This document shows positions 33,997-44,569 of a stretch of DNA of 44,569 nucleotides, piece by piece. The stretch lies in sequence record OM632668.1, one strand, 5' to 3'. The stretch's first letter is position 1, and each line of letters starts with the position of its first letter. Source of the DNA: Escherichia phage BEU35. A program made the position numbers and the translations under genes. The notes below the pieces were generated by a model, which searched no databases, was not told the origin of the DNA, and saw nothing but the letters and a program-made list of their open reading frames with translations.

Positions 33997-34196
33997 TTCA
34001 CGTTCTCCTTAATCCACGCTTCCACTTTCTCCGGGTCGAACGTACCGGGCTGCCGGCGACCCATAATGCGGATACAACAATCAGGGAACCTCCCACTCTT
34101 TAACCAGTTATTAAGCGTGCGGCGAGTAACCCCGATACGCTCAGCTACTTCATTCTGTGTCATTCTCAAACCCTCATTATCAGTTAACGAAACCAA
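33993..34196 (-). CDS. AlpA/MerR-like helix-turn-helix DNA-binding protein
   Basis: MTQNEVAERIGVTRRTLNNW HTH signature. Confidence 0.55.
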   Translation of the reverse strand: MVSLTDNEGLRMTQNEVAERIGVTRRTLNNWLKSGRFPDCCIRIMGRRQPGTFDPEKVEAWIKENVK

Positions 34197-34599
34197 GTAT
34201 ACATTGCGAATAATGGGAAATCAAACATAATCGCACCTATTGACATTATGAAAATCTTCGTTTAAGGTGCTTCTATATCTTAGTTACTTTGATTCCTGTT
34301 CACCTTGTAATACCTGCTTGAAACGCAGCGGCGCCAAAGCGCCAGCGAAGTGTTAAGCAGCAGATTACTGAACATAAGAATTACCGTAACTTTCCTTCCG
34401 TAGTATCTCTGGTTGCCCTGGGCAAGCTCTATTCTCATCGGCAGCATATCTCTTAAGTATCTGATAATTAAAAGTTTCTATAGTTGCCGTGAGCAAGGTA
34501 GAGAGTACTTCACTCCGCTGGGGTGGGCTAACGCCCACCCACTGCGTTGCGTACTCTTTTAAGAAACGAAAGAATCACAACGGCAACGTAACTATTCTC

Positions 34600-35877: not shown

Positions 35878-36090
35878 ATGAATGTAGTGGCGAGATGTTT
35901 TCACGCAATTTTCGGCGCACCGCAAGAAGTATGCACTAACCATAAATTTGTACTTTCTTGCGTGGTGGGGGATGAGTTTGATGGGTTCGATAAACTTATT
36001 GTCTGTGACCATTGCGGGCAAGAAGCTATACAACACTCAAACGGTAAATTCGAACTAATTAACGAGGAAGGGGATGGGGATGGTGAGTAG
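35878..36090 (+). CDS. small Cys/His-rich protein, paralog B
   Basis: Paralog of 30664..30891 in inverted orientation. Confidence 0.55.
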   Translation: MNVVARCFHAIFGAPQEVCTNHKFVLSCVVGDEFDGFDKLIVCDHCGQEAIQHSNGKFELINEEGDGDGE

Positions 36091-37938: not shown

Positions 37939-38404
37939 TGGATTGCATTTTACCGCCGCGTTCGAGGGATTCCGAGGAACTGCGTATCGCGCTACACCGA
38001 ATGAGAAGTACCTGACTATTGGGTATGGAAGCTATGGCCCGCATGTTAAGGCGGGGCAGACCATCACTCCAGGACAAGGCCTCCTGTTACTTAATCGCGA
38101 TATGGCTAAAGCCGTAGCTGCGGTTGATGCGGCAGCGCACCATTCACTGACACAGGCACAGTTCGACGCTGTGTGTGACCTGGTCTACAACGCAGGCGCT
38201 GGCGTGATTGCCGCTACCACGGGCACAGGTAAGGCGCTGCGTTCTGGTGACATCGAGACGCTGCGGGCTAAGCTGACACTGTTCATCAACCAGAACGGCA
38301 GACCACTACTCGGCCTGCGTCGCCGTACAGCAGGTCGTCTGGCGCTGTTTGACGGTAAACCGTGGCAAGAGGCGGAGGCAATTGGGCGCGCGGTGAAAGG
38401 TTGA
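37916..38404 (+). CDS. endolysin, GH24 lysozyme-like (GTG start)
   Basis: FEGFRGTAYRATPNEKYLTIGYG catalytic Glu-Asp-Thr-type signature; GGAGGA RBS. Confidence 0.7.
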   Translation: MSRNISDNGLHFTAAFEGFRGTAYRATPNEKYLTIGYGSYGPHVKAGQTITPGQGLLLLNRDMAKAVAAVDAAAHHSLTQAQFDAVCDLVYNAGAGVIAATTGTGKALRSGDIETLRAKLTLFINQNGRPLLGLRRRTAGRLALFDGKPWQEAEAIGRAVKG

Positions 38405-38468
38405 CACCTAAGACTAATCCGACGATACTTAAATCACCTCCTGTTCCATCCCTCTGCTCTCCAGTTTT

Positions 38469-38501
38469 ATCCCGGCCCTGACCCAGCCGGGATTTTTTTT
38501 T
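38469..38501 (+). terminator. strong intrinsic terminator after lysis cassette
   Basis: ATCCCGGC-loop-GCCGGGAT followed by T9. Confidence 0.7.
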
Positions 38502-38523
38502 ATCTATTTTCGGTAATGACTAG

Positions 38524-38552
38524 TTGACTATTACCCTCGACCCTATTATATT
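38524..38552 (+). promoter_or_regulatory. sigma70-like promoter (TTGACT-N17-TATATT)
   Basis: Hexamers and spacing read from sequence. Confidence 0.45.
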
Positions 38553-38585
38553 TACTCCATCGACAACGAGAACGGAGTAGAGAAG

Positions 38586-38783
38586 ATGAGTAACGTACCG
38601 ACAATCGCAATAACCGAGGAACTTGAAGCCAAATGTATCGCATCAGTTATAGGGAATGGTTCGGTGGAAAAACTACAGATGAGGGCCGCTGCGGGCTACA
38701 TACGCAGGGCTAATAGCGCGCAGACTGATGTTTTACGTAAACGTTACCTCGTGAAAGCGTTAGAAATACTGGAGAATAACTAA
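38586..38783 (+). CDS. hypothetical protein
   Basis: GGAG RBS; first of a string of coupled small genes. Confidence 0.4.
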   Translation: MSNVPTIAITEELEAKCIASVIGNGSVEKLQMRAAAGYIRRANSAQTDVLRKRYLVKALEILENN

Positions 38784-38932
38784 TGAAAATCACAGATATC
38801 GAAGCATTCAAAGACGCGCAACTGATGGCACGTATCGCCGTTAGTAACCTTAGCAACAGCATCCCGGCAGACGCGTTCTGGTTCGCTGCGATGCAGACAC
38901 TTAAAGCAGCATATGCAGGAGAGAAGAAATGA
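38783..38932 (+). CDS. small hypothetical protein (49 aa)
   Basis: TAATG overlap upstream, ATGA overlap downstream. Confidence 0.35.
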   Translation: MKITDIEAFKDAQLMARIAVSNLSNSIPADAFWFAAMQTLKAAYAGEKK

Positions 38933-39126
38933 AAGTTAAAGCAGCTAAAATTCTCTGGTTACCCGCCCTTGACTATGTGACAGAGGGTAAAGTGTATGAC
39001 GTATACAACCCGAAAACTACTGGTTTTGGTTATATAGTTGCCGATGACGGCTGTGATATTTACATAGACTTTGGTAGCGATGAAGGTGATGGTTTCCACG
39101 GCGTTAAATGGGAGATTGTCGAATGA
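38929..39126 (+). CDS. hypothetical protein
   Basis: Overlap coupling. Confidence 0.4.
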   Translation: MKVKAAKILWLPALDYVTEGKVYDVYNPKTTGFGYIVADDGCDIYIDFGSDEGDGFHGVKWEIVE

Positions 39127-39281
39127 GCGAACAAACACCAATCAGCCAACCGTTACGAGTAGGCCGTAAAGTCAGTCACACCCCGTTCCCGACACGCGAG
39201 GAACTGATGAAACGTAACAGTTTCCCGGGGCCGGACAAGAACAAGTATCTCAATCGCATGTGGGGAGAGCGTAAAGAATGA
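39123..39281 (+). CDS. small hypothetical protein (52 aa)
   Basis: ATGA overlaps at both ends. Confidence 0.35.
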   Translation: MSEQTPISQPLRVGRKVSHTPFPTREELMKRNSFPGPDKNKYLNRMWGERKE

Positions 39282-39463
39282 CTGACCGCGAATATGAAAA
39301 GATGATGGTTGAGGCCGTTAACAGCGGCGTAGACATCGGACACGTGATGTGCGTCCTGAATACTAAAATCGCGGTAGCCGAGCAAATGGTCGAGTCGCTT
39401 TACGAGACGCGCCGTGAACTGATTAACCGCTTCAACCTGAACAAAGGTGACACCAATGCCTAA
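39278..39463 (+). CDS. hypothetical protein
   Basis: Overlap coupling. Confidence 0.4.
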   Translation: MTDREYEKMMVEAVNSGVDIGHVMCVLNTKIAVAEQMVESLYETRRELINRFNLNKGDTNA

Positions 39464-39743
39464 AATCACAATCGCATCTCTCGAGCGCCGTATTCTGGTG
39501 CTTGAGTCGGAGAAACAGACGTTAGGCGGGCAACTGTCGATTAACGGTGAGTTTCAGCTGGAGGCGTTCCGTATACTCCTCGGCGTTATGAAGCAGGAAC
39601 CCAGCGCATACGCGGGAGTGTTCCTTGACGAGGAAGGTTCGCAGACACTAAGTTACTACGCTACCGAAGAAGAATTAGCGTTCGACGGCCCCGCGGTATC
39701 TATCCCGCTGTTCGATAACTGGATGGTGTACGACTATGACTAA
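39456..39743 (+). CDS. hypothetical protein
   Basis: Overlap coupling. Confidence 0.4.
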   Translation: MPKITIASLERRILVLESEKQTLGGQLSINGEFQLEAFRILLGVMKQEPSAYAGVFLDEEGSQTLSYYATEEELAFDGPAVSIPLFDNWMVYDYD

Positions 39744-39921
39744 AGCGCCTGAACCAGTAGTTATCGATGGCGTCCTGTGGAAGCCATACTCGGTTTACCA
39801 CATCGACGCCGACGGGAAGAAGTTTAGCTTCTACATTTTTGCAATTAGCCGTGAGCACGCCGCTTGTGTGGTTGACGATATTCGAGAAACGGCGTGGCTT
39901 GGTGATGAGATAGCGGGGTGA
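39736..39921 (+). CDS. hypothetical protein
   Basis: Overlap coupling. Confidence 0.4.
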   Translation: MTKAPEPVVIDGVLWKPYSVYHIDADGKKFSFYIFAISREHAACVVDDIRETAWLGDEIAG

Positions 39922-39925
39922 GAGT

Positions 39926-40009
39926 ATGAGTCTCGAGGTGGTTATCGGTCTGGTGGGTCTTAGTTACTTCATTGGGCTGTTGGTTGGGTTTCTGTGGGGT
40001 AAATACTAA
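39926..40009 (+). CDS. very small hydrophobic peptide (27 aa)
   Basis: Translation MSLEVVIGLVGLSYFIGLLVGFLWGKY; stop overlaps next ATG. Confidence 0.25.
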   Translation: MSLEVVIGLVGLSYFIGLLVGFLWGKY

Positions 40010-40179
40010 TGTTCAGTGACATTAACGCGGCAATCGAAGAAGCAATCTGGCGTCGCTACAACGGCGAGCAACAACGGCATTTCTGCCTGGTGCAACGCGG
40101 TAACATGATTGCCGTAGTGCAGGACCGCGATAACAAATATCCGAATGCGATGTGGACAACGAGGAATTTTTTAGGATGA
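40009..40179 (+). CDS. small hypothetical protein (56 aa)
   Basis: TAATG and ATGA overlaps with neighbours. Confidence 0.3.
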   Translation: MFSDINAAIEEAIWRRYNGEQQRHFCLVQRGNMIAVVQDRDNKYPNAMWTTRNFLG

Positions 40180-40412
40180 TTACCAGCATTCCGAACCTGA
40201 TTAAAGAATTCGGCACGATGGCCGAGACATGCCGGCAAACCGGCATCAACGAAATGACGATTGCGAAGTACAGCAAAGACGTTGATTGCGAGCGCCACGT
40301 AATTTATAACAATCGTCTGATGACACATGTTAAGACAAGCCCGGTGTTATTCACGCGCCGAGGTATCACTAAAACTGAGCAACGCATTGCTAAAGGGGAG
40401 AGTGGGGAATGA
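40176..40412 (+). CDS. hypothetical protein
   Basis: Overlap coupling. Confidence 0.4.
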   Translation: MITSIPNLIKEFGTMAETCRQTGINEMTIAKYSKDVDCERHVIYNNRLMTHVKTSPVLFTRRGITKTEQRIAKGESGE

Positions 40413-40591
40413 TTGAGATTTTGAGGGCTACGAATGTTGCTGGTGACCTGGTGTTTTGGCTGGCCTTTCTCGGTGTGCTGATAAAACAACCGACTCTGTT
40501 TAACAGTCTCCCTCGTTACCTGTGGTGGCCTATGTTTTTAGGCATGGGTGTATCAGGCGTGGCAGGCATCCTTTTGTGGTTTTTCAAATGA
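40409..40591 (+). CDS. small membrane protein
   Basis: Two hydrophobic helices. Confidence 0.4.
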   Translation: MIEILRATNVAGDLVFWLAFLGVLIKQPTLFNSLPRYLWWPMFLGMGVSGVAGILLWFFK

Positions 40592-40693
40592 GACTACTAA
40601 TCATCCCTAACGCCTGGGCCATTCCCGTAGCCAACGACCATTACGGCGGCGACGGTAAAAGAGCGCAACGACACGGCCTATACAACTGATACA

Positions 40694-40718
40694 AGCCCTC
40701 TACGGAGGGCTTTTCTGT
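40694..40718 (+). terminator. intrinsic terminator before packaging genes
   Basis: GCCCTC-tacg-GAGGGC followed by TTTTCTGT. Confidence 0.55.
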
Positions 40719-40810
40719 ACATCCCGCCCAATCCCCTTATATAATCTATTTAGACGCGTAGGGCGCGTCTGGTGCGCTCTGATGGTCAGACGCATATGCA
40801 AGGGGATTCT

Positions 40811-41320
40811 ATGAAGCTGAAACTTAAGCAGCCATCGCCAGAGGTGGTGCAAGCTGCACATGAAGAAGCTGTTAGCGCAAACCGTCGCCGTAAACAACCG
40901 CGCGGTAAACAGAGCCTTTATCAATCATCCCGTAATTCCGCTGCGCTGTGGGACCCGGACTATTGCGACGAATTGATTCGTTTCTTTGACCGCACGTCGT
41001 GGGAGCTTGTGCCAACGTCTAAGGGTGATGAACGCCCACTGATTCAGGATAAGCCGCCGTCACTGGCCCGCTTCGCCTTACACATCGGCGTAACTATCCC
41101 GATAATTAAGCTGTGGCTGCGCGAGATTCCCGCATTTGCAGAAGCATACGAAACCGCCCAGGCTCTGGAAGAGGCATACTTCACTGAGACAGGGGCTGCG
41201 GGCATCTCGGCTACGTTTGCTGCCGCGAAACTGGGCCTGAATAAAACAGTTGTCGCCGAAGAAGTACGCGACGAGCCAATCAGCGAAGTAACAATTAAGG
41301 TGGTGTCCGGTGAACGTTAA
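40811..41320 (+). CDS. terS: terminase small subunit
   Basis: HTH-like PSLARFALHIGVTIPIIKLWLRE; AAGGGG RBS. Confidence 0.6.
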   Translation: MKLKLKQPSPEVVQAAHEEAVSANRRRKQPRGKQSLYQSSRNSAALWDPDYCDELIRFFDRTSWELVPTSKGDERPLIQDKPPSLARFALHIGVTIPIIKLWLREIPAFAEAYETAQALEEAYFTETGAAGISATFAAAKLGLNKTVVAEEVRDEPISEVTIKVVSGER

Positions 41321-41337
41321 TATCACGGCAACGTGAG

Positions 41338-42279
41338 GTGTGGGAATACTCAGAACCAAGTGCAGAGTTCGAAACAAAGTTCGGTGAACAATACCGCGTT
41401 CTCGATTTGATTGACGGGCGCTACCGCCAGCGAATCTATCGCTTCGATGCCGAAGGTGGCGCTCAGGATGATGTAATCGAAATATTCCCGGAACTTGGCG
41501 AACAGTTACGGGGCAAAATCCCGTTCACGTTCATTGGGGCAAGCAACAACGATGCGACCATTGATGATGCACCTTTGCTGCCGCTTGCTGAACTAAACAT
41601 AGGACATTTCCGCAACAGCGCAGACAATGAGGAGTCCAGTTTCGTTGTAGGTCAGCCAACTCTGTTCATCGCCCCGGGTGAGAACATGAGCATGGAACAG
41701 TGGAAAGAAGCCAACCCACACGGCGTGCGTATGGGGTCACGTTCTGGCCATAACATCGGTTACGGCGGCAATGCGTTTCTGGTCCAGGCCGGTGAGAACA
41801 ACCTAGCCAAGCAGAACATGCTGGATAAAGAGAATCAGGCCATCCAGATTGGTGCGCAGCTTATCACCCCTACCCAGCAAATCACCGCTGAATCAGCCCG
41901 CCTGCAACGTGGTGCCGACACGTCCGTTATGGCGACAATTGCACGTAACGTAAGCATGGCGTATACCGATGCGCTAAAGTGGGTTGCGGGTATGCTTGGG
42001 CTTAGTGACGGCACTGAAATTGAGTTCAAACTGAACATGGAGTTCTTCCTGCAACCAATGACCGCCCAGGACCGCGCTCAGTGGATGGCGGATATTAACG
42101 CGGGCCTGTTACCGGCTACCGCTTACTATGCCGCGTTGCGTAAGGCGGGGGTAACTGACTGGACAGACGAGGACATTCAGAACGCTATCGAGGATGCGCC
42201 GCTGCCGTTAGGTGCTGTTACTCAGGTGGCGGGGGAGATTCCGCAGTCGGCGCAGCAACAGGACACCACTCAGCCGTAA
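41338..42279 (+). CDS. portal-like protein, C-terminal segment (GTG start in ORF track)
   Basis: Recalled resemblance to P22 gp1-type portal core (TLFIAPGENMSMEQW vs PFFWPEQIAGFEHMY); immediately upstream of Mu-F-type gene. Confidence 0.45.
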   Translation: MWEYSEPSAEFETKFGEQYRVLDLIDGRYRQRIYRFDAEGGAQDDVIEIFPELGEQLRGKIPFTFIGASNNDATIDDAPLLPLAELNIGHFRNSADNEESSFVVGQPTLFIAPGENMSMEQWKEANPHGVRMGSRSGHNIGYGGNAFLVQAGENNLAKQNMLDKENQAIQIGAQLITPTQQITAESARLQRGADTSVMATIARNVSMAYTDALKWVAGMLGLSDGTEIEFKLNMEFFLQPMTAQDRAQWMADINAGLLPATAYYAALRKAGVTDWTDEDIQNAIEDAPLPLGAVTQVAGEIPQSAQQQDTTQP

Positions 42280-42289
42280 GTTCACATAT

Positions 42290-42310
42290 AGCCCCGAAAG
42301 GGGCTTTCTT
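42290..42310 (+). terminator. terminator-like hairpin between portal-like ORF and head morphogenesis gene
   Basis: AGCCCC-gaaa-GGGGCT followed by TTCTT. Confidence 0.4.
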
Positions 42311-42315
42311 ATAGT

Positions 42316-44286
42316 ATGCTATTAACTTTAGTACCACAGGGTTTAACTATGAGCTTACTTACATCCCTCATCAGCCATCAGATATGGCTGCAACGCACCG
42401 CATCCGGTGAGGTGAAAGACCTCACACCGTTCATTCAGGAGATGCGGGATGAAATTAAACGGCAGGTGCTGTTATTCGGTGACGACGGTCGTAGCACTGC
42501 GCGACTGAATAAATTGTTACGCGACCTTGAGGAAGCACTAACCGGACTTACGGGCGACTGGCAGACAAAGCTGACAGAAGACCTTAAGGAACTGGCGGCG
42601 TATGAGGCCGAGTGGAACGTAAAGACTCTGACCGCCAACGTTAACGCGGAATTTGTTACCCCTACCGCGGAACAGGTGTGGGCCGCTGCCGAGTTTCAGC
42701 CATTATCGTTGAGTGACAAGCCCGTTGATTTCACTAAGCTGATGGACGGCTGGGGTGAAACAGAAGTCGCGCGCCTGGTAACCGGCGTTAAGATGGGCTT
42801 TGTACAAGGCCAAACCACACGGCAGATTGTTAAGAACGTCGTAGGCGCTGGCGGACTGGCGGACATCTCTGAGCGTAACGCGGCCACCGTAATCCGTACT
42901 GCACTGTCTCACGTATCCAACGAAGCACGTAACGAGACGTACCGCCAGAACGACGACATCATCGAGAAATATGAGTGGGTGTCTACGCTGGACAGCCGTA
43001 CCAGTACAACGTGTTTCACGGCTGAAACAGAATTAGCGCCCATCGCGGGGATGGACGCGGTAATGCGCGGACTCTATTCAGGAAAAATCTTTACCATCGA
43101 ACTTTCCAACGGCGAGAAGTTCAGTGGCACCCCGAAACACCCTGTACTCACGCAATACGGATGGACTCCGCTTGATGAACTCGATCCAACTAAGCATGTC
43201 TTGTATACCACTGTTGACAAAGTGACTGTGCTCGAAACAGTGAAGAACATAAACATGCCAGCCAGAGCGGATTATATTTTTAATACGCTCGCTGATTTCC
43301 CCATCAGGAAAATGGTAAGCACGAGTCCCGCGGCAACAGATTTCTATGGCGATGGAGTGGGACTCAATGGCAAAATCGACATTGTACGGGCCGATTGCAA
43401 ACTGCGGAACTACGTCCACGCCAGCGGAATTAAACAATTCAAAAGCGAGGGTTTCAGTCTTATTCATAGCGCCGCTTTGCTGTCGGACGATAGCTCTGGC
43501 GATTTTCTCCTCCGGGGTGAATGTCCTGTGAGTGTGCCCGCGCTTAGCGAGGCCAAGTGTTTTGACCATAGAATAGAAAACTGTTTTGCTTACTTGGGTC
43601 CTTCTTATGCACTCAATAGGCGGGACGCCGGACTCGAACAATTCTATAGCCCTTTTTTGATTCAAAATGGTGTCGTTAGAAACCCAACCACGGGGTCGAT
43701 CATGCATGAGTCCGAGCTTCTTGAGAAATGTTGTTACCGTGGTGGTAGTGACGCCGTAATTCTTGGCTATGATGCTGGCGGGAGTGCCATCTCGGTACAA
43801 AGAGCAAATATCATCCGCATAAGCGTCGAGTTTAGAACGTGCCATGTTTATACCCTCTCTAGTAGTCAAGGATATTATACAGCAGGTAGTGCGATAGTCA
43901 AGAATTGCAGGGCCAGAGACGGAATGACGTGGGAAATCGGTAAAGGTCCGATGCCACCAGCCCATCCTAATTGCCGAAGTACCACTGCACCGGTAATCAG
44001 TTCAGAGTTCGACTTCCTTGATAAAGGCGCAAAACGTGCGGCTAAGGGTGCGGACGGCGGTACTCAGGTAAGCGCAGACACCACTTACTACGAGTTCCTT
44101 AAACAACAACCGGCGTGGTTTCAGGACCAGGCCCTCGGCCCGGTGCGAGGTAAGATTTTCCGTAACAGCGGTATATCGCCGGAAGAGTTTCGCGTAATAT
44201 CTGTAGATGGTTTCGGGAATCCGCTCACGCTTAAGCAGATGGCGGAACTCGATAAACGTGTTGCTGATTATCTGAAAGGGGAATAA
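42316..44286 (+). CDS. Mu F / SPP1 gp7-type head morphogenesis protein precursor with in-frame intein (alternative start ATG 42349)
   Basis: Extein DSRTSTT...CRARDGMTWEIGKGPMPPAHPNCRS matches Mu-F-type conserved core; interrupted by 298 codons with intein blocks. Confidence 0.7.
   Translation: MLLTLVPQGLTMSLLTSLISHQIWLQRTASGEVKDLTPFIQEMRDEIKRQVLLFGDDGRSTARLNKLLRDLEEALTGLTGDWQTKLTEDLKELAAYEAEWNVKTLTANVNAEFVTPTAEQVWAAAEFQPLSLSDKPVDFTKLMDGWGETEVARLVTGVKMGFVQGQTTRQIVKNVVGAGGLADISERNAATVIRTALSHVSNEARNETYRQNDDIIEKYEWVSTLDSRTSTTCFTAETELAPIAGMDAVMRGLYSGKIFTIELSNGEKFSGTPKHPVLTQYGWTPLDELDPTKHVLYTTVDKVTVLETVKNINMPARADYIFNTLADFPIRKMVSTSPAATDFYGDGVGLNGKIDIVRADCKLRNYVHASGIKQFKSEGFSLIHSAALLSDDSSGDFLLRGECPVSVPALSEAKCFDHRIENCFAYLGPSYALNRRDAGLEQFYSPFLIQNGVVRNPTTGSIMHESELLEKCCYRGGSDAVILGYDAGGSAISVQRANIIRISVEFRTCHVYTLSSSQGYYTAGSAIVKNCRARDGMTWEIGKGPMPPAHPNCRSTTAPVISSEFDFLDKGAKRAAKGADGGTQVSADTTYYEFLKQQPAWFQDQALGPVRGKIFRNSGISPEEFRVISVDGFGNPLTLKQMAELDKRVADYLKGE
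43012..43905 (+). other. intein (298 codons, Cys1 to Asn298, +1 Cys) within the head morphogenesis gene
   Basis: Starts CFTAETEL; block B-like TPKHPVLTQYGWTPLDEL; ends VYTLSSSQGYYTAGSAIVKN followed by Cys. Confidence 0.65.
43078..43845 (-). CDS. opposite-strand ORF nested in the intein: tandem HTH plus Vsr/DUF559-like nuclease-like region; candidate homing endonuclease (ORF track extends to 43965)
   Basis: AGAGAGG RBS before ATG 43845; HTH-like TPASIIAKNYGVTTTTVTTFLKKLGL and VPPIECIRRTQVSKTVFYSMVKTLGL; PYNVDFAIESHSIAIEI ... RSGWHVYVL. Confidence 0.45.
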   Translation of the reverse strand: MARSKLDAYADDICSLYRDGTPASIIAKNYGVTTTTVTTFLKKLGLMHDRPRGWVSNDTILNQKRAIELFESGVPPIECIRRTQVSKTVFYSMVKTLGLAKRGHTHRTFTPEEKIARAIVRQQSGAMNKTETLAFELFNSAGVDVVPQFAIGPYNVDFAIESHSIAIEICCRGTRAYHFPDGEISERIKNIIRSGWHVYVLHCFEHSHFVNSGIQDMLSWIEFIKRSPSVLREYRVFRGATELLAVGKFDGKDFS

Positions 44287-44569
44287 TGATGGGCTTTTTC
44301 AAAGTAACTGATGTACCGTCGCGTCGCGTAGTCCAGTACGCCCGCGTGTCTGGCTCTGGCGAGAACGTGGTGTTTATTGAAGATGAAAGTGTACTCGGTA
44401 CACCAGTAGACGATATGCCGTTTGCAGACAAGACAGGTATCGCACTCTCTGCCGCTGGTATGCTTTATGAAATTCCGTATCTGGCGGACGCTGGTGACGT
44501 GTATTTCTCTGTGCAACCGAAAGACACTGAACTTACAGATGGCAGCGCAACTATCACTGTCGAAGTTAA
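44286..44569 (+). CDS. hypothetical protein, 3'-truncated by window end
   Basis: ATG overlaps stop of head morphogenesis gene (TAATG); frame open to window end. Confidence 0.4.
   Translation, partial: MMGFFKVTDVPSRRVVQYARVSGSGENVVFIEDESVLGTPVDDMPFADKTGIALSAAGMLYEIPYLADAGDVYFSVQPKDTELTDGSATITVEV

Follow-up and report, generated by a model that had tools for sequence, protein, structure and literature searches.

A probable accessory operon of twelve small genes between the lysis and packaging modules of a Kagunavirus coliphage

Gene map, coding status and transcription signals

The stretch of DNA analysed here (the window, 44.6 kb) is the genome of a Kagunavirus coliphage (Guernseyvirinae). 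A chain of small genes, designated p1 to p12, lies between its endolysin gene and terS, together with the following features:

38469..38501, + strand: intrinsic terminator T1 after the endolysin gene; stem ATCCCGGC/GCCGGGAT, 9-nt loop, T9
38524..38552, + strand: sigma-70-type promoter; -35 TTGACT (38524-38529), 17-nt spacer, -10 TATATT (38547-38552); 10 of 12 consensus matches
38586..38783, + strand: p1, 65 aa, basic; first-slot ORF, variable among related loci
38783..38932, + strand: p2, 49 aa, core; phrog_2180 (E 2e-26), unknown function
38929..39126, + strand: p3, 65 aa, acidic, variable; SH3-like small beta-barrel in an AlphaFold model (pLDDT 90.9)
39123..39281, + strand: p4, 52 aa, basic, core; DUF2737 (Pfam PF10930), phrog_4684
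39278..39463, + strand: p5, 61 aa, core; phrog_1402 (E 4e-22)
39456..39743, + strand: p6, 95 aa, acidic; phrog_9023 and phrog_10200, residues 1-52 only
39736..39921, + strand: p7, 61 aa, acidic; phrog_10509, pN/pS 0.10
39926..40009, + strand: p8, 27 aa, variable; one hydrophobic helix (KD19 2.46)
40009..40179, + strand: p9, 56 aa; phrog_5407, the strongest constraint in the operon (pN/pS 0.04)
40176..40412, + strand: p10, 78 aa, basic, core; putative NinH-like (Fis-like) helix-turn-helix protein, pN/pS 0.15
40409..40591, + strand: p11, 60 aa, variable; two hydrophobic segments, phrog_10956
40588..40689, + strand: p12, 33 aa (MRLLIIPNAWAIPVANDHYGGDGKRAQRHGLYN), core; ATGA overlap with the p11 stop; phrog_32259 (E 3.5e-17)
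40693..40718, + strand: intrinsic terminator T2; stem AAGCCCTC/GAGGGCTT, loop TACG, then TTTTCTGT
40716..40745, + strand: terS promoter of the next transcription unit; TGTACA-18-TATAAT, abutting T2
40811-41320, + strand: terS, context gene downstream of the operon

The initial annotation placed eleven ORFs at 38586-40591, and every one of them was recovered on the plus strand at the coordinates given there. Its end point did not hold: p12 had been overlooked, and the unit runs to 40689, with the p12 stop 3 nt upstream of the T2 stem. Similarly, the lower limit of the reported size range (27-98 codons) stands but the upper one does not. The longest ORF, p6, would have 98 codons if read from GTG 39447, but its start is most likely ATG 39456 (95 codons), which has the better Shine-Dalgarno sequence and is the codon chosen in the annotations of relatives. 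ORF4 (p4) starts at ATG 39123 and not at 39108. The corrected map thus comprises twelve genes with better start codons and a defined promoter and terminators. Successive junctions from p1 to p11 measure -1, -4, -4, -4, -8, -8, +4, -1, -4 and -4 nt, and GGAG-like Shine-Dalgarno motifs lie upstream of most ORFs in the cluster. Start-stop overlaps of 1, 4 or 8 nt would permit translational coupling. The chaining is therefore real, as first described, but it is a genome-wide habit and not a distinctive trait of the locus: in the related phage fEg-Eco06, overlapping same-strand junctions account for 8 of 9 in the cluster and 31 of 58 elsewhere (Fisher p = 0.07), so that chaining alone is no argument for a special coupling.

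All twelve ORFs are under purifying selection and are real protein-coding genes. It could be argued that the short ORFs reflect conserved non-coding DNA with frames left open by chance, given that several are only 27-33 aa long and that the exact p8 sequence is absent from the protein collection, but the probability of this is negligible. Indeed, the same-strand chain spans 2002 of 2104 nt, more than in any of 500 dinucleotide shuffles (mean 1364 +/- 176, maximum 1819). Synonymous bias against relatives is observed in all twelve ORFs, with pN/pS of 0.04-0.41 (from small samples in the case of p1, p3 and p6), including the two shortest, p8 (0.17) and p12 (0.13). Moreover, the p12 frame is open, with no frameshift, in 27 of the 27 related sequences listed, Jerseyvirus-like ones included, and p12 is annotated in JSSK01, fTaEco03 and SZH-1. 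Finally, 11 of the 12 ORFs are counted as matching PHROG families, although the match of p3 is weak (E 0.0018); p1 has none, and the entry for p8 is likewise without a PHROG. The region is 100% identical to that of BEU33 and 99% identical to those of fEg-Eco06 and Golestan, in which the ORFs are annotated.

The single promoter proposed initially was found, and conservation of its hexamers is directly observed. Among 41 distinct upstream sequences, the -35 element is invariant and the -10 element is altered in one only (TATATC), while the spacer varies in sequence and is constant in length. The leader and Shine-Dalgarno sequence are kept in relatives even where the first gene differs. We infer the use and timing of the promoter; only nine sites as good as this one occur in the whole window. 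The terminators claimed after the endolysin gene and before terS are both stable hairpins followed by a T run. The terminator scanner overlooked them; they were found as inverted repeats, for which folding energy and z were then computed (T1 hairpin, 38469-38493, dG -13.8 kcal/mol, z -3.7; T2 hairpin, 40693-40712, dG -15.6 kcal/mol, z -4.5). T1 is kept in the relatives that cover the site and T2 in 38 distinct sequences. In Jerseyvirus-like sequences the T1 stem changes from CCCGGC/GCCGGG to CCCGGTA/TACCGGG, with both partners of the pair altered, and the T2 stem from CCCTC/GAGGG to CCCGC/GCGGG, with both arms altered. The terS promoter in relatives has an invariant -35 element and either TATAAT or TACAAT as the -10 element. 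The assignment of the ORFs to one promoter-to-terminator unit is supported: host sigma-70 RNA polymerase would start at TTGACT-17-TATATT, carry the twelve small genes on one mRNA and terminate at T2, immediately ahead of the terS promoter.

The operon is flanked by the late modules for lysis and packaging, and read-through from upstream may contribute to its transcription. In the transcriptome of vB_Eco_K1B4, the sole one for a Kagunavirus, the NinH gene is classed as 'middle' together with lysozyme and capsid genes and is not among the four early genes (PMC12645636). These expression classes are coarse, and the placement of NinH counts against reading the locus as an accessory operon.

Core genes and swappable slots

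The locus is mosaic. In 35 relatives it holds 57 ORF families, and the gene order is constant, p2-p4-p5-(p6)-(p7)-(p9)-p10, plus variable slots. A fixed core across the subfamily consists of p2, p4/DUF2737, p5, the N-terminal half of p6, the NinH-like p10 and p12, to which p7 and p9 are added in Kagunavirus. In this phage, the four slots hold p1 ahead of p2, p3 between p2 and p4, p8 between p7 and p9, and p11 after p10. None of the 35-40 relatives examined lacks the operon or its core; presence varies for individual slot genes alone, presumably by recombination that swaps them for unrelated small genes. Slot contents in relatives include an ASCH/DUF3850 RNA-binding-type domain and, in the first slot of two relatives, a phrog_14587 gene labelled 'anti-restriction protein' (E 2e-20), to whose family p1 is unrelated. 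This map of core and slots is of use for Kagunavirus engineering and for deciding which small genes to screen for toxicity or anti-defence activity; Kagunavirus phages serve as chassis in synthetic biology and therapy (PMC11990801). Conservation of the core everywhere may mean that it is essential for phage development, for instance through regulation or help in packaging, rather than 'accessory'.

Among the core genes, p2 is found in every related locus (pN/pS 0.11) and also in Skatevirus-like and other siphoviruses. The membership of p4 (pN/pS 0.28) in DUF2737 is directly supported by a match of residues 20-46 to PF10930 (38.9 bits against a gathering cut-off of 25, E 8e-10), and tblastn identifies HK620 hkaI and ES18 gp44, the latter noted as similar to P22 orf56, as its relatives. 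The DUF2737 family is itself without assigned function. Like p2, p5 occurs in every locus (pN/pS 0.12); its ends are conserved (MTDREYEKMMVEA ... RRELINRFNLNK) and its middle is variable. Residues 1-41 of p5 match the N-terminal part of phrog_268, the C-terminal part of which matches p10. In p6 the N-terminal half is conserved and the C-terminal half variable, and relatives align over ~50% of the length at 79-95% identity. Almost every Kagunavirus-like locus carries p9, and the Jerseyvirus-like ones lack it. The p9 homologue in the Gamaleyavirus Bp4, orf93, lies among homologues of N4 gp2, gp6 and gp9, a region that we take to correspond to the N4 early region.

The slot genes are more restricted. 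Full-length p1 occurs in 3 of ~40 related loci and in 47 phage records, from Guernseyvirinae only; it has no match in Pfam or PHROG, and its pN/pS of 0.27 comes from 2 variants. p3 is present in 7 of ~40 loci and is predicted by its model to be an SH3-like barrel; the top PDB matches of the model are SH3 domains and the Pif1 SH3-like domain (TM 0.43-0.55), at a non-significant E of ~0.5. A cold-shock domain (CspA/CspE) was considered for p3 and rejected: the NCBIfam CspE match (E 0.004) scores 17 bits against a cut-off of 120, the family profile reaches CspLA in the PDB at E 0.63, the GFGYI motif is unconserved in the p3 family, and CspA ranks 36th by fold (TM 0.35), below SH3-like barrels. 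p8 is found in ~17 of 40 loci. p11 is mainly a gene of Salmonella Jerseyvirus (108 of 126 phage records are Salmonella phages; pN/pS 0.41), and its hydropathy windows with KD >= 1.6 start at residues 7 to 42. The statement that two products of the cluster are hydrophobic agrees with these data, the two being p8 and p11 (KD19 1.78), which may be small inner-membrane peptides.

The p7 and p10 proteins

The p7 family comprises at least 117 clusters (50% identity, E<=1e-3) across siphoviruses and Ackermannviridae and displays the conserved pattern G..W..Y....DG.FSF.IYAIS.EHA. The orthologue in fEg-Eco06 is labelled 'RNA polymerase inhibitor' ('similar to 2LMC_A'), which would make the operon a module for shut-off of host transcription, with p7 as an inhibitor of E. 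coli RNA polymerase like T7 Gp2. The resemblance goes as far as general character: Gp2 (PDB 2LMC) is, like p7, an acidic protein of ~60 aa with mixed beta/alpha structure, p7 is modelled as a sheet followed by a helix (beta-beta-beta-alpha order, pLDDT 84), and hhalign pairs p7 FSFYIFAISREHA with Gp2 SFEVPIYAETLDEA. However, similarity in sequence, profile and fold is undetectable. BLASTP of p7 against Gp2 gave no alignment and the hhalign probability was 2.5%, both with a Gp2 sequence entered by hand; neither phmmer of p7 nor a 68-sequence p7 profile retrieved anything from the PDB. Foldseek of the model against the PDB reached a best E of 0.49, with no Gp2 among the 50 best matches listed, and against a viral structure library it returned uncharacterised relatives only. 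Furthermore, the annotation of fEg-Eco06 lists no RNA polymerase gene, so that a full block of the host enzyme would be self-defeating. Thus, p7 fails all sequence, profile and fold tests for a Gp2-type inhibitor, the shut-off module is very improbable, and the label in the public fEg-Eco06 record is unsupported.

By sequence comparison, p10 appears to be a divergent NinH, a Fis-like helix-turn-helix protein. It aligns with lambda NinH over 51 aa at 33% identity (BLASTP, E 1e-9); its score against Pfam PF06322, 23.4 bits, is under the curated cut-off of 29.8, and homologues at 86-96% identity have precomputed PF06322 hits. A shallow p10 profile gave no significant Fis match in the PDB. As a dimer, lambda NinH binds and bends DNA; its overexpression is toxic, and H45 and H55 have a role in dimerisation (PMC7166090). 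The corresponding residues of p10, H41 and H51, are invariant in the family alignment, and T32 and K35 of NinH are kept as T28 and K31. Yet the full set of DNA contacts is not present, because N18, R30 and R34 are replaced by T, E and A, respectively; R56 is missing as well. In lambda NinH, substitution of R30 or R56 by alanine abolishes or strongly reduces DNA binding, and the R34A protein is insoluble, so that its binding could not be assayed (PMC7166090). Thus, p10 could be a dimeric DNA-binding and DNA-bending protein of the Fis/NinH type, although DNA binding is not assured given the lack of R30, R34 and R56.

Comparison with known regions and possible functions

Several phage regions resemble the locus in part. 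The lambda nin region (ninB-ninI, between P and Q) is likewise a same-strand run of small, mostly overlapping ORFs (NinD to NinH are 57-204 aa long and overlap) that includes a NinH-family gene, and it is dispensable in the laboratory. However, it forms part of the pR operon, flanked by the replication genes and Q, and has no dedicated promoter, whereas the operon here has its own promoter and lies between lysis genes and terS. The nin enzymes NinC, NinG/Rap and the NinI phosphatase are missing from the operon, leaving NinH, with p10 as its likely counterpart, as the sole common gene. In P22-like phages, the ea/hka genes of the PL early-left operon also place a DUF2737 gene within a chain of small overlapping genes, but in HK620 and ES18 this gene adjoins abc2 and erf, and the C-terminal ~30 residues alone align with p4 (58-70% identity). 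The gp2-gp13 end of N4-like phages is comparable in that Bp4 orf93, ~45% identical to the p9 family, lies between the gp2 and gp6 homologues; these are nevertheless an unrelated type of phage with one gene, p9, in common, and the transcription machinery of N4, with its virion RNA polymerase, differs. Three members, p4, p10 and p9, thus have kin in accessory or early regions elsewhere.

Lambdoid morons, a concept from the HK97/HK022 literature, are similar to the operon in having their own sigma-70 promoter and intrinsic terminator, in being wedged between late modules and in varying in content among relatives. Here, a conserved predicted promoter and two terminators delimit the unit between the late genes for endolysin and terS, but clean absence from some relatives is not seen, as the core is always present. 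Moreover, morons are typically single prophage-expressed genes benefiting the host, unlike twelve genes with a subfamily-wide core in a virulent phage. In kind, the operon would correspond in Guernseyvirinae to the nin and ea accessory regions of lambdoid phages.

We consider it probable that this virulent Kagunavirus carries, at 38524-40718, a self-contained accessory operon that is transcribed from its own sigma-70 promoter and encodes small non-enzymatic products. In agreement with the initial annotation, which saw no obvious catalytic motif, no enzyme family in Pfam, NCBIfam or PHROG was matched. The description of all products as being of unknown function applies to their PHROG matches, every one of which is so labelled, but not to p4 and p10; remote homology searches, advised at the outset, placed p4 in a family and, more tentatively, p10, and barely resolved the function of the cluster. 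The products are probably not virion parts. The functions that we infer for them most likely involve binding, with the soluble core proteins possibly acting on phage or host macromolecules. The operon is an ordinary accessory block, already catalogued, whose genes are present in near-identical published phage records, and nothing unusual was seen in it. Beyond housekeeping, the locus matters little, being a textbook-style block of small genes of phage 'dark matter'.

More specific roles are conceivable. The initial annotation regarded such chains as typical sites of anti-defence, superinfection-exclusion or host-takeover functions. The locus is indeed a mosaic accessory region, and the swappable slots, the anti-restriction label of a first-slot gene in relatives, the acidic character of p3, p5, p6 and p7 (pI 4.2-4.9), the two putative membrane peptides and the sigma-70 promoter are all in line with an island in which most small proteins inhibit host immunity or block secondary infection. 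We nevertheless find this unlikely, since no protein of the operon matches a family known for, or labelled as, anti-defence, exclusion or host takeover (PADLOC gave none with E < 0.04 and Pfam none), and the phrog_14587 label comes from annotation and not from a functional test. Kagunavirus isolates have in addition been reported to be highly RM-sensitive and variably Old-sensitive (PMC11990801). Furthermore, the core is universal in phages of E. coli and Salmonella and strongly constrained (pN/pS 0.04-0.15), unlike patchy arms-race genes, and conserved phage-intrinsic roles therefore fit better than arms-race cargo.

Another conceivable role is late-phase help, with p10, alone or with core partners, activating the terS promoter or aiding terminase, and p8 and p11 tuning the timing of lysis. 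The position between the holin/endolysin genes and terS suits this, as do p10 and p12 always being the last conserved genes ahead of the terS promoter, the poor -35 element of that promoter (TGTACA) with a conserved downstream hairpin, the retention of the core across the whole subfamily and the K1B4 transcriptome, in which the NinH gene groups with those for lysis and structure (PMC12645636). On the other hand, the binding site and partners of p10 are putative, key NinH/Fis DNA-contact residues are missing from p10, and lambda NinH has no known packaging role; many relatives do without p8 and p11, and spanins and holins are encoded elsewhere in the genome. Overall, the helper role seems rather improbable. 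It is also doubtful that the core (p2, p4, p5, p10 and p12, with p7 and p9 in Kagunavirus) represents an uncharacterised regulatory or host-takeover module. In such a module, p7, from a widespread family whose fold has no counterpart among solved structures, and the highly constrained p9 would each act against a particular host factor, and p10, which departs from the canonical arginine contacts, would reprogramme transcription or DNA topology before packaging. If a core member did target a host factor, this would be a modest addition to the catalogue of host-takeover proteins.

A twelve-gene unit between the endolysin gene and terS

Over 38400-40800 the window matches Escherichia phage BEU33 at 100% identity and fEg-Eco06 and VB_EcoS-Golestan at 99%, all three belonging to Kagunavirus in the subfamily Guernseyvirinae; 365 phage records match this region in total. 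The small ORFs of the region are already annotated in the matching records, mostly as 'hypothetical protein', with 'DUF2737 family protein', 'NinH protein' or 'transcriptional regulator' as other labels; in fEg-Eco06 one of them is called 'RNA polymerase inhibitor; similar to 2LMC_A'. The source names of the exact cluster proteins are all 'hypothetical protein', and the literature on the cluster genes of Kagunavirus and Jerseyvirus or on DUF2737 yields only generic annotation statements in place of functional work. Judged by sequence identity, the cluster is a known locus, carried in annotated form by identical or nearly identical deposited phages, and its architecture is of a kind well known from phage accessory genes, with nothing surprising to a specialist.

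The initial annotation described eleven ORFs (38586-40591, + strand; here p1 to p11, in order) chained by start-stop overlaps. All of them were found as described, with successive junctions of -1, -4, -4, -4, -8, -8, +4, -1, -4 and -4 nt, and the two hydrophobic products that it mentioned are those of p8 and p11. GGAG-type ribosome-binding motifs precede most cluster ORFs. The count and the end of the cluster required correction, as a twelfth ORF, p12, extends the unit to 40689. Its frame is open in all 27 related sequences listed, Jerseyvirus-like ones included, its pN/pS is 0.13, it matches phrog_32259, and a few records carry an annotation for it. The features that delimit or revise the unit are as follows.

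Boundaries and revised genes of the cluster
38469-38501, terminator T1 after the endolysin gene: hairpin 38469-38493, then nine T; dG -13.8 kcal/mol, z -3.7
38524-38552, promoter-like site TTGACT-17-TATATT
39123, + strand, ATG, best start of p4 (52 aa), in agreement with relatives
39456, + strand, ATG, best start of p6 (95 aa), in agreement with relatives
40588-40689, + strand, p12 (33 aa): ATGA overlap with the p11 stop, end 3 nt before the T2 stem
40693-40718, terminator T2 before terS: hairpin 40693-40712, then TTTTCTGT; dG -15.6 kcal/mol, z -4.5

Same-strand ORFs cover 2002 of the 2104 nt of the cluster, compared with 1364 +/- 176 on average and at most 1819 in 500 dinucleotide shuffles, and the tiling thus exceeds chance. 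Moreover, every cluster ORF displays an excess of synonymous change against related loci, with pN/pS ranging from 0.04 (p9) to 0.41 (p11), the samples for p1, p3 and p6 being small; 50 related loci extending through terS were taken from IMG/VR. We consider the probability that the cluster ORFs are chance reading frames to be negligible. By contrast, the chaining itself had to be discarded as a special signature: overlapping junctions account for 8 of 9 in the fEg-Eco06 cluster and for 31 of 58 among its other same-strand gene pairs, which is not a significant difference (Fisher p = 0.07), and overlap, being a genome-wide habit, is no distinguishing mark of the cluster. All-against-all BLASTP detected no paralogy inside the cluster. 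A 48-aa ORF in an alternative frame (39767-39913, + strand) overlaps p7 and was chosen over it by the ORF-chain heuristic in six relatives (ORF family 15); tblastn and pN/pS support the p7 frame and not the overlapping one.

The single promoter proposed for the cluster was recovered at 38524-38552, one of nine sites of this quality in the whole window. In the 41 distinct upstream sequences compared, no change affects the -35 hexamer, the -10 hexamer deviates in one, and the spacer keeps its length of 17 nt with a variable sequence, as a functional sigma-70 promoter would be expected to show. The leader and the Shine-Dalgarno motif are kept even where the first gene differs. Both flanking terminators, which had also been proposed, are clear as hairpins followed by a T run, although the pattern scanner missed them, and both hairpins are conserved in relatives. 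In Jerseyvirus-like loci the T1 stem changes from CCCGGC/GCCGGG to CCCGGTA/TACCGGG and the T2 stem from CCCTC/GAGGG to CCCGC/GCGGG, in each case matched on both arms. The T tract of T2 abuts the -35 hexamer of the terS promoter, TGTACA-18-TATAAT. The conserved promoter and terminators thus point to a unit comprising the promoter, twelve genes and the terminator at 40693-40718. Very probably the cluster is a real multi-gene transcription unit, for which we infer promoter use and timing.

The cluster also contains two weaker promoter-like sites (39438-39466 and 40153-40180, 9/12 matches each). An Rfam search of 38300-40900 returned only sub-threshold terminator-like matches, and ATGACTAGTTGACTATTAC, considered as a shared operator at the promoter, was rejected, since it occurs once in the genome. 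Four IMG/VR contigs (L019, L036, L047 and L048) open with the T run that follows the T1 hairpin (~38493); assembly may have broken off at the hairpin and poly-T, in which case these are not true genome ends. Beyond the terS promoter, 40746-40800 contains a conserved hairpin, AGACGCGTAGGGCGCGTCT (dG -13.1 kcal/mol), whose stem is changed in Jerseyvirus-like loci, and a motif, AGACGCGTA / AGACGCATA, repeated 36 nt apart, the second copy of which shares bases with the upstream ATG of the terS frame. This hairpin and repeat might serve regulation or packaging.

Core genes, exchangeable slots and protein families

We compared the loci by tblastn of the window proteins and by clustering the ORFs of 35 endolysin-to-terS intervals, which span 1.2-3.0 kb and contain 57 ORF families. 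The comparison shows a cluster built in two tiers, a core and swappable slots. Genes p2, p5 and p10 are present in 35/35 intervals and p4 in 34/35, p12 and the N-terminal half of p6 are each found in most loci, and nearly every Kagunavirus-like locus has p7 and p9, which are absent from six Jerseyvirus-like ones. The order of the core genes is constant. Unrelated small genes are exchanged at four positions: ahead of p2, in the p2-p4 and p7-p9 gaps, and downstream of p10. In the window these slots are occupied by p1 (complete in 3 loci), p3 (7), p8 (about 17) and p11 (about 14), the last being mainly a Salmonella Jerseyvirus gene (108/126 records). About 30 slot families from relatives were scanned: one is a DUF3850/ASCH family (RNA-binding-type domain; 7 genomes), another, at the position of p1, matches phrog_14587, labeled 'anti-restriction protein' (2 genomes), and no function could be attached to the rest. 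The phrog_14587-matching protein has no PDB relative, and p1 was rejected as its relative in the same slot, the two sharing no similarity. In some relatives (L006, L009 and L055), the first ~20-33 residues of p1 (MSNVxTIxITEELEAKCIA...; 38586-38690) run in frame into p2 as a single protein of 82 aa, which suggests that recombination takes place within the conserved leader and the initial codons.

PHROG matches were obtained for 11/12 ORFs, all of unknown function; that of p3 is weak (E 0.0018) and p1 has none. NCBIfam and PADLOC gave nothing significant for the cluster proteins. In Pfam, p4 is assigned to DUF2737 above threshold, and p10 matches NinH below threshold. Nevertheless, p10 aligns to lambda NinH with E 1e-9, and its close homologues carry PF06322. 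A Fis-like dimeric protein, NinH binds DNA and bends it, and its overproduction is toxic (PMC7166090). Equivalents of NinH T32, K35, H45 and H55 are retained in p10, but T, E, A and V stand at the positions of N18, R30, R34 and R56. In lambda NinH, R30A and R56A abolish or strongly reduce DNA binding, N18A reduces it to an intermediate degree, and the R34A protein is insoluble (PMC7166090). Thus, by its sequence p10 is probably a divergent member of the NinH family, for which DNA binding cannot be assumed. A profile search against PDB for a link between p10 and Fis gave no significant matches, the alignment being too shallow. The 119 positions of phrog_268 match residues 1-41 of p5 (39278-39400) with their N-terminal part and p10 (40176-40412) with their C-terminal part, and in some phages the NinH-like protein may be longer and start with a p5-like segment.

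Relatives of several cluster genes reside in different surroundings in other phages. The NinH gene of lambda lies in the nin region, and DUF2737 corresponds to HK620 hkaI and ES18 gp44 (noted as similar to P22 orf56), the gene adjoining abc2 in the PL early-left operon of HK620 and ES18. The p9 family member orf93 of the N4-like phage Bp4 is a small gene between the homologues of N4 gp2 and gp6, a neighborhood that we take to be the early region of N4. A C-terminal motif, NKYxNxMW, is common to p4 (39240-39269) and p9 (40129-40161) and is also present in hkaI. Distant homology of p4 and p9 was rejected (hhalign probability 3%), and we treat the motif as a short chance resemblance or at most a shared motif.

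The p7 family comprises 117 clusters at 50% identity, with members in Ackermannviridae and other phages, and displays the conserved pattern G..W..Y....DG.FSF.IYAIS.EHA. As to p3, weak matches to cold-shock proteins recur, and its model (pLDDT 91) is a small barrel closer to SH3-like domains than to CspA, with no significant match. Since the family does not conserve the RNP-like motif and the confidently predicted barrel is nearer to SH3-like ones, we rejected p3 as a cold-shock domain protein.

Possible role of the cluster

By analogy, we favor, with some reserve, the view that the cluster is the Guernseyvirinae counterpart of the lambdoid nin and ea accessory regions, a statement about its general class. 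The operon, bounded by terminators, would be transcribed by host RNA polymerase and encode small binding proteins; the conserved core is probably regulatory or engaged in DNA transactions and host interaction, and the few slots swapped by recombination may carry host-specific cargo. The NinH-like p10 is the sole member with a mechanistic precedent. Host takeover was among the functions put forward initially; as an early event it is weakened by the location of the operon between two late modules and by the sole Kagunavirus transcriptome, in which the NinH gene falls into a broad 'middle' class together with lysis and capsid genes (PMC12645636).

An island of anti-defence or exclusion genes, also suggested initially, would be in keeping with the mosaicism of the slots and with the single 'anti-restriction' PHROG label in two relatives. 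However, the core is universal and strongly constrained, and the restriction sensitivity of Kagunavirus is reported to be high (PMC11990801), and we regard this function as unlikely. Somewhat less probable still is a late helper of packaging or lysis, to which the position of the cluster points. Shut-off of host RNA polymerase by a Gp2-like protein, as the public label for p7 implies, is very improbable, as every sequence, profile and fold test of p7 against T7 Gp2 failed: BLASTP produced no alignment with Gp2, phmmer and a 68-sequence profile found nothing in PDB, and the hhalign probability was 2.5%. With the p7 model (pLDDT 84), the best Foldseek match in PDB had E 0.49, Gp2 being absent among the 50 best matches listed, and the viral structure library yielded only uncharacterized relatives. 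As far as sequence and model comparisons go, the label 'RNA polymerase inhibitor' of fEg-Eco06 g016 (PQ141284.1; 39736-39921 in the window) is unsupported. Besides this finding on a public label, the analysis yields a corrected twelve-gene map, a documented promoter with its terminators and a map of core versus slots.

Rearrangements elsewhere in the window

Compared with BEU33 and fEg-Eco06, the window has a rearranged gene order, the positions concerned being 1-1796, 1797 and 41332-44569. Instead of terL, the gene after terS (end 41320) is the portal gene, represented there by its 3' part (from 41332), and terL and the 5' part of the portal gene lie at 1-1796, so that the portal gene is split. 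Given the natural order in BEU33, this arrangement probably arose as an artefact when the source contig was assembled. The contig shows a second rearrangement, in which a 171-bp block (35895-36065) is displaced relative to BEU33 (34180-34350). Finally, ~900 bp of the minor head protein gene (43008-43904) have no counterpart in BEU33, and fEg-Eco06, which aligns across this segment, is annotated there as 'minor head protein with inserted intein'; the segment is probably an intein present in the window and absent from BEU33.
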